From contig CALXTI010000006.1 of assembly GCA_944391395.1 (NCBI GenBank), positions 2,503 through 66,502 of the forward strand: a stretch of 64,000 nt of DNA, read 5' to 3'. The notes below the pieces were generated by a model, which did not search any database, was not told where the DNA came from, and saw nothing but the letters and a program-made list of their open reading frames with translations. A program made the translations under genes and the position numbers. This document shows, piece after piece, positions 13,544-21,577 of the stretch (positions within the stretch are counted from its first letter, which is position 1; every line of letters begins with the position of its first letter). The DNA comes from an uncultured Alphaproteobacteria bacterium (GTDB lineage: Bacteria > Pseudomonadota > Alphaproteobacteria > RF32 > CAG-239).

Positions 13544-16500
13544 TTATTCATAAACTATGCAATACGGTTCTTCAAAATTATTTAAATTATCTTCAAACAC
13601 GTCTTGCGCTTCTTTATCATATTCATCGCGCGCGGCATTGTCGGCCTGCTTGCTTTTAATTTTTTCCGCAAGCTCGCTGTCGCCTGCCATGTTGTCGTTT
13701 AGCTGCACCAGCTCATCGCTGTCCATCTGCAACGCACCGGCAATATTATCGACTTTGGTTAATTTTTCTTCCAAAACATCGTTGAGCGGCTGAATCGATT
13801 GTATAATGTTTACAGATTCTTCAACATAGTCGTTTTTGGCAGAATCAAGCGCCGACATAATTTCATTATAAGTATCATCGTCCGAAAGGTCAAAGTCTTC
13901 TGCCGGTTTATATTCGACATCCTCAAGTTGTTCCTTGATTTTCTGCCGAGTGTTTTCTACTTTGACATCCAGCTGATCCAAATTGTCCTGATAGAGCATC
14001 TCCTGTTCGATAAAATCCAAGAAATTGCCAAATTGATTACGCGTCAACAATTCTTTTTTATAAATATCCTCCAACGCCAAATCTTCTTCGCTCACATCAC
14101 CGGCCGTTTCCAGATTTTCGTAAAATTCCATAATCTTTTGTACACGGTCGCTAAAAGTCAGGCCATCTTTATAAGCCAAGACGGTCGCCAGTTCACTCGT
14201 CAATTCTTTTTCCGGAACTTTGTTTAAAGTGCCGCTCACGCTGCCGTCAACAAGATGAACCTGAACAAAGTAACTCACTTCACCTGTTAGCTCATTTACA
14301 TGACGCGTGATGCTGATTGAATTGATGTCGGGACAAACCCGGTTGATATTGCCGGTAGCGCCGGAGACATGATACTGACCGTTGCGGATTGTAACATCAT
14401 ATTTGCCGGTTGTGCAGGGATATCCCGGTTTGATGGCATCAAGCGCGGCCGAATTATGCGATAAGATTTTTTCAATATCGACATCTCTTTCCACAAAACC
14501 TTTCCGACCTAAAATCCGCTGCCAAATTCCCGGTAAATCTTGCCCCATGTCAAGGAAATCTTCTCTTGTCGTCATCCAGGTGTCTGATTTGATAATATCG
14601 GCAAAATCGACCGTGTCAAAATGTATGATTTCACGCAGCGGCGCCGTCGGCGTCGTGGCAATAATTTCGGGCGCCATAAAGTCTCGCGGCTTGGGCGGCA
14701 ACCCGACGAAATATTCATCATCGCTTTTATAACACGCATCACCCGGACAAATTTCGGCAAACGCGGCTTGCGTGATTATTTCTTCGGCAATGCCGTTAAT
14801 CGCCGATGGACTGCCCAAAAGCGACAATAACGTTCCGGTTATGGAAATATCAATTTCGGGACGCTGCATATTATTCAACATACGTTTATGAATAGCGACA
14901 ATTTCGTTGTGATAATCGCTTTCGAAACGATTGTTTTCCATGTTATCAATAGCTTCGGCCGCATTTCTGATTTCTGCCAACATCTGACTGCGGACGCGTT
15001 CCGCCGCATTATCCGAAACATTAATCATAGCGCTCAGAATCGAGCGGGTAACACTGTTTGCCCCCGTGGTCGTTCTTAAAATGCCGGAAAGAAAATCGCT
15101 CTCGCCAAGCGTTTGAGACGAAACATCGTTTTGAAGAGCAAGCAAAGCATTTTTTACCGTGGCAAGGCTTTGTGCTTCCAAGCTTGACGCATCAGCGGCA
15201 AAATCGTTTTTGGCGCGGGTGATTTCTTCTTCTTTATCCGCCAATTCGATTTTAAGTTCATCAATGCTTTCACGCTGTGTTTCTATGCCCGGCAAAACGC
15301 TTTCCGCCGTTTGTTCAGCTTCGGCAATCGCGGTATCGGATTCAGCCATTGATGATTCCGCCGTCGCTTCAAAATTGCTCATGGAACCCGGAGATTTTGC
15401 CTTACGTTCCTGCGAAATTTCAATGACGACTTTTTGCCCTTCTATGTTTCCTTCGGCGGAGGCCTTATCTTCCATAGCCGTATTATAGGTTGTCTTCAAA
15501 TCATTTAAGGCTATGTTTTCGTTGTCAAGATTTTCATATATGGAAGTTTTCTGGTTGTTCAACGAAGCCATCTTGGCGTTAAAAGAGTTGCGCAAGCCGT
15601 CGATTGCTTTGTCAACATTATCCTGAACCTCCTCAATATTTGCAAACGCCTGAGAAATTGACGCATTTTCTTTAAGTGCGTTTTCCAGTTTTTCCAAAAC
15701 CCGGCTGTTATATTCTTTGATGTCTGAAAAACTGAGCGTTTCGCTTATCATGCCTTTGGAAGGAATCATGTCGTTGATTTTTTGCGCAAGTTTGATAACA
15801 GAGGGACGCAAATCCATCGCTTTGACATAAATTTCCATGTTTTTATATTTTTCATTCAAATACTGATCATAAACAAGCTTTACATCATCCCACATGGGGT
15901 ATTCGGCTTTTACCGCCCCCCATTCCGACGTGCCGGCGACCATATCTTTGCCAAGTTGTTTGGCGGCTTCGGCGCCGATTTGCCAGGAAATCAAGCCCTG
16001 TTCCCGAATAGTTGCTTCCGTTTTCGGCTCATCACTCGGACGCAGCAAAGAACTGTCCGCCGTGCCTGATGACGCCTCAGCGCCGTACTGCTCGTTTAAA
16101 GAGCTTAATTGCGAAACATCCGCCTCTACGCTTTCATCGGTCATGCTGGCGGCAAAGTCCTCCATTCCGAGATCAAGCGTTTTTTCTGCTTTGGCGGCTT
16201 TGTACGCCGAAATCAGCCATCCGGAAAAGCCCTCGCGGCTTGAATAATCGGTTACATCATAGCTGCTGCAAATTTTAGATTTGTTGTCTGCGCATAAAAC
16301 ATCTCCCGGCAACAGATTTTTCAATGTTTCCGAGGTTAATTGGCGGTCCGTATCACATGAAATCGTGCGGCCGTTCCTTTTGCAGCCGCGGCCATACCAC
16401 ATTTCCACCGGGTCCGTATAATAGTTGCCGACATAATTTACGTTGCAGCTTTCGGATTTCAGCAGCTGTTCCACGGCTTTTTCGTGCAAGGCTTTCATTT

Positions 16501-19734: not shown

Positions 19735-21577
19735 AATAGCTCTTGTCTATTTGCGCAACCGACGACCAAGACTTGGTAATCGCCTGACTGGCCGTTGCCT
19801 CCATCAAACGAATCATTATCTCTTGATTGGTTTGAGTTGTTTTACCGGAAAATGAAATTTCTTCACGTTCGTTGCTCAAAGCCTGCGACTTGTTGTCCAA
19901 ATCATCGGCAACCTCGGTATCAAACGAGGCGGAATAGTTTTTTTGCACCAAAGCATCCGCCAAATTTCCCGCGACATGGTCGCGCAGCGCTTCGCTATAT
20001 TGATTTTTCCATTCCGTGGCGGTTTCGGCATTGGGGTCGCCCATGCCCAGAACCCAAATCTTGACACATTCTTTAATTTTATCTTCATCAACTTCGTCAA
20101 AGTTTATGCCGCATTTGTTCGCAATGATATCCGAATAGATAAATTTTCCGTCATTGTTGGTACCGGTTTTGAAAGATGCCATTTGGGCAAAAGCCATCGG
20201 GCGGCTGACAACATGGGAAAATTCCGCCGACGAGGTGGTAAACGCCCGCCGTGCCGGCGCCTGTCTGGCTGCCGCCGGCTTGGCTCTGACCGGAGCCGAA
20301 GTTTGGCTCGCGTCGGCCGCGGCCGGAGCAGCGCCGGTTGATACGCTTGCCGCAGTCGGCGCGGCGGTTTTACTTGTGTTTGCCGAAACCGTGCCCGTTG
20401 GCTTTGCCGCGGTGGCCGCAGTCGGGGTTACGCTTGTTGTCGACGCCTTGTTTTGAGTCGCGTTGTCGGTCGTGAAAGCGCGGCGAACCGGCGCTTGTCT
20501 GACTTCCGAGGCGGATACCGGCGCCACGCTTGTTGTCGGCGCAACCGAAACCGCCGTTGCGGTTCCCGTTGTTGCTTTCATGCCGTCGGTCGTATTTGCC
20601 ACCGCGCCGCCGGACACTCTGTCCGCCGGATTGAGAGAAGCGCTGCCGCCGCCGACAATTTCGGGTTTAACAACTTTCATTCCCTCATCCGTCGCAACCG
20701 CACCGTCGGCTACCGGCGCTTTTTCTCCCGCGACGGCATCTATGGTCGAGATTTCTCCGGCAACCGGAGCCGTTTCCGCTTTTTCTCCCGTAAACGGACG
20801 ACGCCCGATCGAGACTTCCGCCACATTGCCCTCAGAAACTGCCGAAAGTCCGTCAGTTGTCAACACCGCGTTTTCAACCGCCTCGCCGTTCCAGCTGCCT
20901 TCGGAAAATTCGGTATCGGAAATCAAATCGGCAATCGCCTCATCATCTAAAGCTTCACCTTCCATAAATTCATCAGAGGACAGCATCTCTTCGTCTTCCG
21001 GAGTTTCTTCGGTGCCGGCAGCGGCGTCATCGCCGGCGCCAAGCATATCTTTGGCCTCATCCAGCATGCCCATACCTTCCTCATAGTAGCCCATGCCTTC
21101 ATCGTACAACGCCATGCCTTCCTCGTAGTAGCCCTTGCCCTCTTCGTACATTTCCATGCCTTCATTGTACATTTCTTTACCGGCATCAATAGTACCTTGA
21201 ACCTGCCCCATGGTATCGGCGGCAAATTGTTTGGCGTTTGCCGCCTGTTCCTCAAACTCTTTTTTCAGCTCGGCCAAGCGCTCCATGCGTTTTTGTTGTT
21301 TTTCAACTTTTTCTTGAGCTTTTTCGGCCAGTTCTTTGGCGTCCGCAAATTTTGACAAACCGCCGACCGCATCGCCTATTTGTTGTTGAATGTTGCCGAC
21401 CGACAAGGTGGATTGAATGGTTGAAGAGGTTGATTCGATTTGCGCGATCCAACCGTTAATCATGTTGGTTACCTGCGACAAATCAAGCGTCGGCCATTGG
21501 CAATGCGCCGGAGCAGCCAGCATAATCATTCCCGCACAGGTTAAACAATAAATCGTAAAATTTTGTTTCTTGCTCAT
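19709..21577 (-). CDS. Secreted 622-aa protein with a TrbJ/VirB5-like N-terminal coiled coil. It also has a long Ala/Thr/Pro-rich low-complexity middle and an acidic tail.
   Basis: The N-terminus QWPTLDLSQVTNMINGWIAQIE resembles the TrbJ consensus. It lies immediately downstream of virB4. It shares the RPMAFAQM motif with the 1394-aa protein. Confidence 0.45.
   Translation of the reverse strand: MSKKQNFTIYCLTCAGMIMLAAPAHCQWPTLDLSQVTNMINGWIAQIESTSSTIQSTLSVGNIQQQIGDAVGGLSKFADAKELAEKAQEKVEKQQKRMERLAELKKEFEEQAANAKQFAADTMGQVQGTIDAGKEMYNEGMEMYEEGKGYYEEGMALYDEGMGYYEEGMGMLDEAKDMLGAGDDAAAGTEETPEDEEMLSSDEFMEGEALDDEAIADLISDTEFSEGSWNGEAVENAVLTTDGLSAVSEGNVAEVSIGRRPFTGEKAETAPVAGEISTIDAVAGEKAPVADGAVATDEGMKVVKPEIVGGGSASLNPADRVSGGAVANTTDGMKATTGTATAVSVAPTTSVAPVSASEVRQAPVRRAFTTDNATQNKASTTSVTPTAATAAKPTGTVSANTSKTAAPTAASVSTGAAPAAADASQTSAPVRAKPAAARQAPARRAFTTSSAEFSHVVSRPMAFAQMASFKTGTNNDGKFIYSDIIANKCGINFDEVDEDKIKECVKIWVLGMGDPNAETATEWKNQYSEALRDHVAGNLADALVQKNYSASFDTEVADDLDNKSQALSNEREEISFSGKTTQTNQEIMIRLMEATASQAITKSWSSVAQIDKSYYEEEEADE

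Follow-up and report, generated by a model that had tools for sequence, protein, structure and literature searches.

Four exported helical proteins between virB4 and virB8 of a gut alphaproteobacterial type IV secretion operon: a candidate modular expansion of the VirB5 (TrbJ) family

VirB5, or TrbJ, is a component of the periplasmic stalk and pilus tip of type IV secretion systems (T4SSs), and the family to which it belongs (PF07996) includes TraC of pKM101 and TrwJ of R388. The rvh system of Rickettsiales is devoid of VirB5, and the genes that follow its virB3-virB4 code for VirB6 paralogues with many transmembrane (TM) helices. According to current models, a pentamer of VirB6 is the platform for a pentamer of VirB5, upon which assembly of the pilus follows (PMC12857230). 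The Trw T4SS of Bartonella carries multiple copies of TrwL (VirB2) and TrwJ (VirB5), lacks VirD4, and was proposed to elaborate variable adhesive pili (PMC12857230). Here, we describe a T4SS operon located in a 64-kb stretch (hereafter the window: 64,000 nucleotides of contig CALXTI010000006.1) of the genome of an uncultured alphaproteobacterium of the RF32 lineage CAG-239, where the interval between virB4 and virB8 is occupied by four consecutive minus-strand open reading frames (ORFs) of 622, 237, 436 and 1394 aa, designated p622, p237, p436 and p1394. On balance, we favor the view that these four genes constitute a lineage-specific modular expansion of VirB5 that includes fused precursors probably processed at an internal AFA/Q site (the slash marks the predicted cut), a view derived from sequence comparisons. 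Accepting it, p622 would be a VirB5 whose first helix is followed by a disordered insertion of ~350 aa, p237 would represent a minimal version of a VirB5-like protein, p436 would have kept a VirB5-like C-terminal half, and p1394 would be a VirB5-size N-terminal module fused to an exported multidomain part of ~1100 aa. The ORFs and their putative modules are as follows:

p622, 19709-21577, minus strand: 622 aa; signal peptide, VirB5-like N-terminal helix (mature start QWPTLD), insert, AFAQ motif and VirB5-like C-terminal domain
p622 N-terminal module (residues 27-110), 21248-21499, minus strand: aligns with columns 1-43 of the profile of mature VirB5
p622 low-complexity insert (part), 20228-20815, minus strand: three RR[AP]F repeats at 20792-20815, 20465-20494 and 20228-20257
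p622 motif SRPMAFAQM (residues 458-466), 20180-20206, minus strand: small-x-small/Q site before the C-terminal domain
p622 C-terminal domain (residues 467-622), 19712-20179, minus strand: encoded separately in 15 of 66 related loci
p237, 19021-19734, minus strand: 237 aa; small secreted protein, helical and with the size of a VirB5; translation probably starts at 19716 (231 aa)
p436, 17739-19049, minus strand: 436 aa; secreted helical protein; probable start at 19031, giving 430 aa
p436 C-terminal part (about residues 290-400), within 17739-19049: matches the C-terminal half of VirB5
p1394, 13544-17728, minus strand: exported multidomain protein at the usual VirB6 position
p1394 N-terminal module (residues 28-273), 16910-17647, minus strand: SPTID start; weak similarity to the p622 N- and C-terminal modules
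p1394 motif TRPMAFAQM (residues 277-285), 16874-16900, minus strand: located where the N-terminal module joins the remainder of p1394
p1394 C-terminal part (residues 365-1394), 13547-16636, minus strand: ~1030-1100 aa; in three loci, a gene of its own that starts with a signal peptide

A first-pass annotation of the same DNA had described four consecutive ORFs of these sizes, each with a signal peptide and with long coiled coils rich in Gln, Glu and Lys. The ORFs and their export signals are borne out: the N-terminus of each protein bears positive charges, then a hydrophobic stretch that ends in a small-x-small site, and the slightly later starts of p237 and p436 are those chosen by gene callers on identical contigs. 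The helical character also holds; the composition is Ala/Glu-rich rather than Gln-rich, and a crude heptad scan assigns a coiled-coil-like character to only 11-28% of each protein, so that "helical" describes them better than "coiled-coil," even if the AlphaFold model of p1394 still contains two helices of ~85 residues. Beyond the signal peptide, no second 19-residue window reaches a Kyte-Doolittle value of 1.6 in any of the four (best internal values, 0.89-1.47), and the earlier annotation was thus right that the 1394-aa protein lacks TM helices. The insert of p622 contains conserved RR[AP]F(T) repeats (IGRRPF, PVRRAFTT, PARRAFTT) that look like the n-region of a twin-arginine signal, without its hydrophobic core; in distant orthologues, AFAQ is likewise preceded by a basic x-F motif.

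The 1394-aa protein occurs in identical form on ENA and Logan metagenome contigs, and a scan of one genome per species recovered a relative in at least 146 genomes. Its full-length relatives fall into 25 protein clusters, none of which is named or contains a Pfam domain. A set of 76 loci was kept, nearly all of them from uncultured Alphaproteobacteria of the human, mouse, rabbit and ruminant gut, with metagenome-assembled genome labels such as "Azospirillum sp. 51_20," UMGS, MGYG-HGUT and RUG, and a few bins bearing other taxon labels. Literature searches pairing RF32 or CAG-239 with T4SS terms returned nothing relevant. The gene order VirB4, three to five exported helical proteins, p1394, VirB8, lipoprotein, VirB8, VirB9 is kept in the 76 loci, and BLAST clustering with SEG filtering resolves three families upstream of p1394, typified by p622, p237 and p436. 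The four proteins evolve fast: their median identity to the window is 27-36%, vs. 58-80% for VirB4, VirB8 and VirB9, and p622, p237 and p436 are often undetectable by BLAST in related loci.

Kinship with VirB5 was assessed by profile-profile comparison (hhalign), with signal peptides removed unless otherwise stated, against a reference VirB5 family (A6) built from an Erythrobacter plasmid protein that adjoins one of the closest plasmid VirB4s and itself passes PF07996 (30.3 bits for a cut-off of 24.7). Families were not defined by our own iterative HMM searches, which slid from one family to another via low-complexity and helical stretches. The proposed resemblance of the p622 N-terminus to TrbJ/VirB5 was confirmed (91.7%, P 7.9e-7), and the C-terminal domain of the same protein aligns with the C-terminal half of VirB5 (38.8%, P 3e-4); when both parts are joined in silico and the ~350-aa insert is removed, 192 columns align colinearly over the whole of mature VirB5 (92.5%, P 4.8e-7). 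Reciprocally, the p622 family HMM scores 32 bits on the Erythrobacter VirB5, in N- and C-terminal pieces. The C-terminal part of p436, in which the first-pass annotation had missed any likeness to VirB5, matches as well (90.9%, P 1.2e-6). The likeness suggested earlier for p237 turned out to be weak, albeit nearly full length (26.8%, P 7e-4 for the mature protein; 87% with the signal peptide kept). Controls with reversed profiles, which keep composition and helicity, gave scores of 10-22.5, vs. 30-50 in the real comparisons. The mature N-termini carry a further signature, a Sec signal peptide followed by P-[VTI]-[ILV]-D, found in p622 (QWPTLD, with T30 and D32 invariant) and in p1394 (SPTID, with D40 invariant); in p237 and p436, only an Asp is conserved near the cleavage site. 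The N-terminus of p1394 also resembles that of p622 (BLASTP E 0.006), and its residues 107-251 resemble the p622 C-terminal domain (37%, P 3.5e-4). Finally, the genes lie directly after virB4, in the VirB5 slot.

Several results speak against this kinship. The direct comparison of p1394 with the VirB5 profile yields no match (0.1-9%). PF07996 finds no match at E≤0.05-0.1 among the four window proteins, 50 members of the p237 family and 64 of the p622 family, nor at E≤0.01 among 51 remote p622 relatives; such scans return sub-threshold DUF4141 matches only. The AlphaFold model of p622, based on 16 sequences, is unusable (pLDDT 35), that of the p1394 N-terminal module is of low confidence (pLDDT 30-68), and helical proteins give spurious profile matches easily. 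In an exhaustive profile search, p622 drew 177 clusters, none of which provided an annotated link to other families. Scanning the four proteins and their family members against Pfam and NCBIfam gave coiled-coil noise only. PDB sequence-profile searches, run with the four families and with two sub-regions of p1394, likewise yielded nothing beyond coiled-coil noise, in which a TrwJ match of p436 (E 0.066) was lost.

The lack of direct Pfam and NCBIfam matches, the noise of the PDB searches, the very fast evolution of the four proteins, and the fold searches with p1394, which retrieve generic helical hairpins only (the best being SmhB and AhlB, pores of tripartite alpha-pore-forming toxins, E 0.01-0.05), are what one would expect if the proteins were not related to VirB5 at all: they would then be adhesins, substrates or effectors of helical type, secreted in two steps like pertussis toxin and encoded in the operon by chance, and their profile matches would be noise due to helical composition. 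We consider this explanation improbable given that forward profile scores reach 43-50 where reversed-profile controls stay at 10-22, that the alignments run colinearly from the mature N-terminus and its P-x-x-D signature, that the genes lie exactly in the VirB5 slot after virB4, and that the first ORF after VirB4 in a sister clade has an AFPLPTxD start and matches the reference VirB5 HMM directly in three loci. The idea that the proteins might be secreted effectors, raised in the first-pass annotation, was set aside as unlikely because all four have Sec-type signal peptides and a fixed position inside a structural operon. Likewise, that annotation had them replace VirB5; they rather appear to be diverged derivatives of it. 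Taken together, p622 and p436 are probable divergent members of the VirB5 superfamily and p237 is a possible one, and the case of the p1394 N-terminal module as a VirB5 relative is suggestive only.

The second line of evidence is a short segment, RPMAFAQM, shared by p622 and p1394 and not found in the other operon proteins. A single pairwise BLASTP with the motif alone reaches only E=0.059, yet the motif proves to be a genuine element, conserved in 73 p1394 orthologues and 51 of 61 aligned members of the p622 family. The tracts rich in Ala, Thr, Pro and Ser that had been reported to flank it exist on one side in each case, upstream in p622 and downstream in p1394. At the DNA level, 24 of 27 nucleotides are identical. 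A recent gene-conversion tract was rejected as the source of the motif: the longest identical run is 18 nucleotides, the core contains two synonymous differences, and the flanks are unrelated. Conservation follows the pattern of a signal-peptidase site. Among the 73 p1394 orthologues, every one has Ala, Gly or Ser at -1, 64 have Ala, Ser or Gly at -3, and 54 have Gln at +1; all 51 members of the p622 family with residues at the site have Ala or Gly at -1. In related loci, furthermore, homologues of VirB9, VirB10 and VirB2 have AFAQ as the cleavage region of their genuine signal peptides. The two copies also tend to change together: motif copies of the same genome share 212 identical positions, vs. 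147.7 ± 7.0 when genomes are shuffled (none of 10000 shuffles reaches 212), and parallel replacements affect both copies in L065, L066, L075 and L076 (LMFG), in L017 (GYA), and in L014 and L015 (SYA), with the restriction that related genomes are not independent, so that the effective number of parallel events is a handful and not 49.

Modularity, which the first-pass annotation had suspected, is evident in the related loci, where the modules are fused or separate depending on the lineage. In L040, L043 and L055, the p1394 orthologue is encoded by two genes. The first (264-348 aa) corresponds to residues ~31-273 of p1394, and the second (1090-1264 aa) to residues ~365-1394, with a signal peptide of its own at its start. 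Similarly, the p622 type is split in 15 of 66 loci, in which the first ORF after VirB4 measures 232-468 aa and has the AFPLPTxD start. The ORF for the separate C-terminal domain has a hydrophobic, signal-peptide-like N-terminus in 13 of these 15 loci, and the domain itself begins no more than ~25-55 residues from the ORF start in several of them; for instance, the junction reads AAAQA/EETDANYSG in L044 and MAFAQ-MASFKTG in the window. The other two split loci (L027 and L034) look like broken ORFs. In L034 (4877-6484), the p622 orthologue breaks five residues past AFAQ and the next ORF lacks a signal peptide, which may stem from misassembly or from a genuine interruption at the junction. The comparison of fused and split genes thus places the motif of both families where other lineages have a gene boundary and a signal-peptide cleavage site.

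Since the motif sits at the junction of fused modules, and since the downstream modules exist elsewhere as separate genes with their own signal peptide, we infer that it is a processing site. The motif (h-A-F-A/Q) would be a retained site of signal-peptidase type, and p622 and p1394 would be exported as precursors, then cut after AFA into two polypeptides each. These products could assemble with the three VirB2 paralogues of the operon into a stalk and a variable surface or pilus-tip structure that might serve contact with the host or with other cells. The comparison with cleavage sites of LepB and with pilin maturation of the TraF type is instructive in this respect. Like these sites, the motif has small residues at -3 and -1 and reads AFA/Q as do neighboring genuine signal peptides, and its position is homologous to the ends of real signal peptides; unlike LepB sites, it is internal, hundreds of residues away from the N-terminus, and preceded by no hydrophobic core. 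This last difference counts against processing. In the 30 residues upstream of the motif, the median maximum hydropathy is 0.18, compared to 2.2-3.1 in genuine signal peptides; with no h-region upstream of the internal motif, canonical cleavage by signal peptidase I would be atypical, and no S26 peptidase is encoded in the 64-kb window.

The missing h-region and the absence of a dedicated peptidase nearby would be easily accounted for if the motif were left uncleaved and acted as a short docking element, possibly a β-hairpin of ~20 residues (hydrophobic-x-A-S ... E-T-L-x-F-A-Q), through which p622 and p1394 bind each other or a common partner such as VirB8, VirB9 or the β-flower protein. A shared partner with which the element co-evolves would produce the same parallel change within genomes, the similarity of the two copies reaches upstream of AFAQ (e.g., VKLAS..ETLMFGQ and VKIAT..ETLMFGA in L065), and AlphaFold draws short strands at the motif, with low confidence. 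Uncleaved docking is therefore a serious alternative, to which we nonetheless give rather less than even credit, as it leaves unexplained the strict -3/-1 rule, the use of AFAQ as a real signal-peptide cleavage region in neighboring T4SS proteins, and the coincidence of the motif with gene boundaries and signal peptides in other lineages. Processing at the motif has the merit of making a directly testable prediction, namely internal cleavage at AFA/Q.

In p1394, the N-terminal module is followed by the AFAQ motif, then by a low-complexity linker and finally by a large C-terminal part. The AlphaFold model of residues 28-1227 reaches a mean pLDDT of 66.8, with good quality starting around residue 407. 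It predicts, in order, a Cys-containing α/β domain, a helical domain, the two ~85-residue helices, drawn as a hairpin of ~130 Å by our estimate, an α/β region with a β-rich domain, and C-terminal helices.

The location of p1394 raises the question of VirB6. As reported in the first-pass annotation, p1394 lies at the virB6 position without TM helices. No polytopic ORF is present on the operon strand of the 76 loci, and the only polytopic proteins of the window are a pilus PilC-like protein and ATP synthase subunit a, neither of which is VirB6-like. No operon protein matches the TrbL/VirB6 family models of Pfam and NCBIfam, and none of the four proteins is a polytopic inner-membrane protein with at least five TM helices.

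A search of 72,556 plasmids places the closest VirB4s (36-39% identity) on plasmids of Microvirga (NZ_CP069357), Sphingosinicella (NZ_CP035502) and Erythrobacter aureus (NZ_CP031358). After VirB4, all three plasmids, which come from cultured Alphaproteobacteria, encode a protein of 251-273 aa and, just before the VirB7-like lipoprotein, one of 422-453 aa that lacks TM helices and is annotated as hypothetical. The latter contains a full VirB5 domain (98%, P 1.7e-13) and an extension of ~200 aa. These extended VirB5 genes, all at the VirB6 position, are located as follows:

L080, 19345-20706: extended VirB5 gene
L082, 12379-13647: extended VirB5 gene
L079, 19932-21218: extended VirB5 gene

The annotated starts of the Erythrobacter and Sphingosinicella genes are apparently too far downstream and cut off the signal peptide. 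As an extended VirB5 occupies the VirB6 slot of the plasmids, the slot in which p1394 is found, the presence of such a paralogue in place of VirB6 predates the gut clade. The plasmid systems thus share with the window the closest VirB4, the series VirB4, VirB5, TM-less extended VirB5, VirB7 lipoprotein and VirB8, and the absence of a canonical VirB6; they differ in being of the conjugative type, with a MobA/MobL relaxase and VirD4, in having two VirB5-like genes only, and in lacking the AFAQ motif. A tblastn search of the whole 1394-aa protein against the 72,556 plasmids found no match. A more distant plasmid of Paracaedimonas (VirB4 at 30% identity) encodes a canonical VirB5, then a 348-aa VirB6 with at least four TM segments.

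It is quite possible, if short of probable, that an ordinary VirB6 is encoded elsewhere in the genome and that p1394 is an accessory surface protein instead of a stand-in for VirB6. Indeed, T4SS genes are divided between loci in systems of the Rickettsiales type, and the inspected DNA covers 64 kb in this genome and no more than 24 kb in each related locus; VirB6 as well as VirD4 may thus lie elsewhere, which tempers the reading proposed here. The plasmids argue otherwise: these have a full VirB2-B11 set together with VirD4 and a relaxase, and no VirB6 was seen in the inspected stretch of the Erythrobacter and Sphingosinicella plasmids, while the Microvirga plasmid offers only a small membrane ORF of 228 aa. 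Carried further, these observations would define a P-type T4SS lineage, represented on some alphaproteobacterial plasmids and gut-clade chromosomes, that works without VirB6 and builds its stalk and tip from VirB5 paralogues, including a giant precursor cut at a core-less site; we regard this broad proposition as speculative and rather unlikely.

The operon, seemingly complete, reads VirB2 (three paralogues), VirB3, VirB4, the four ORFs, VirB8, VirB7-like lipoprotein, VirB8, VirB9, β-flower protein, VirB10 and VirB11. Besides the four ORFs, its components are as follows:

VirB4, 21660-24146, minus strand
VirB3-like membrane ORF (96 aa) and three VirB2/TrbC paralogues (113, 117 and 387 aa), 24082-26442, minus strand
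Downstream core, from the first VirB8 (VirB8a) through VirB11, 1172-13532, minus strand
First virB8, 12774-13532, minus strand
VirB7-like lipoprotein, 12439-12627, minus strand: 62 aa, LSAC lipobox, flanked by the two VirB8 genes (11685-13532)
VirB9, 10045-11664, minus strand: 539 aa, with a C-terminal SPOR domain (peptidoglycan-binding) at E 2.4e-4, just above the Pfam cut-off

The third of the VirB2/TrbC paralogues (24506-26442, minus strand), of 387 aa, has a C-terminal extension of ~290 aa rich in Gly, Asn and Asp and containing cysteines, and its homologues reach up to 944 aa in other loci. The SPCACI motif of the 62-aa lipoprotein recurs in the small lipoproteins that the Microvirga and Erythrobacter plasmids encode at the VirB7 position. 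Further downstream (2159-10028, minus strand), VirB10 (1426 aa) and a 1208-aa protein bear 8-12 β-flower repeats each (PF21785, PF21784, DUF3659), an unusual elaboration of the VirB10 region that is conserved in related loci; the 1208-aa protein is membrane-anchored by a single N-terminal TM segment. The operon is flanked by housekeeping genes (yidC, engB) on one side and by an R64-like type IVb pilus cluster on the other (28824-37482, plus strand), with genes for a TcpQ-like protein, a secretin, PilO, a T2SSE ATPase, a T2SSF protein and a bundlin-like pilin. Another PilT/VirB11-like ATPase gene lies on the opposite strand, at 37545-38504 (minus strand). Divergent from the operon, an ORF of 604 aa (26964-28778, plus strand) without a Pfam match combines a single TM segment at its N-terminus with a long, acidic stretch of low complexity; many related loci have an ORF at the same divergent position and in the same orientation. 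No gene for VirD4, a relaxase or VirB1 is present in the 64-kb window.

The interest of this operon is manifold. Given the models in which VirB6 is the platform for VirB5, an operon with several rearranged VirB5 relatives and no VirB6, kept in at least 146 species-level genomes, is a natural test of whether that platform can be dispensed with or replaced. Provisional annotations can now be given to four families without a Pfam or NCBIfam match; those of two families are well supported and that of a third weakly so, and that of p1394 is based only on its position and module architecture. The clade is uncultured and common in metagenomes of the human, mouse, rabbit and ruminant gut, and its chromosomal T4SS, which adjoins a type IVb pilus cluster, is a candidate organelle for contact with the host or with neighboring cells.

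Compared to the VirB5/TrbJ family, the proteins share a Sec signal peptide, a gene position directly after virB4, a P-x-x-D start (p622 and p1394), a helical nature, colinear profile matches (the joined N- and C-terminal parts of p622, and the C-terminal half of p436) and, for p237, the canonical size. They depart from it by the lack of a match at the Pfam threshold, the ~350-aa insert of p622, the different N-terminal half of p436, the size of p1394 (six times the usual one), the presence of four divergent copies for one, and modules that are fused or split depending on the lineage. With the rvh system of Rickettsiales, the operon shares a duplicated VirB8 and several large genes directly after virB3-virB4, although the pattern is reversed here, these genes coding for VirB5-like proteins without TM helices. 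Finally, several features recall the Trw system of Bartonella, i.e., several VirB2 paralogues (three here), multiple VirB5-like genes (at least three here), fast-evolving tip components, host association, and the absence of a coupling protein or relaxase nearby (here, within the 64-kb window). On the one hand, the Trw copies are recent and similar tandem duplicates, with TrwI (VirB6) co-amplified. On the other hand, the paralogues of the operon described here are anciently diverged, differ in architecture, and have no VirB6 beside them. By analogy, Bartonella Trw would nevertheless seem to be the nearest functional counterpart of this system.

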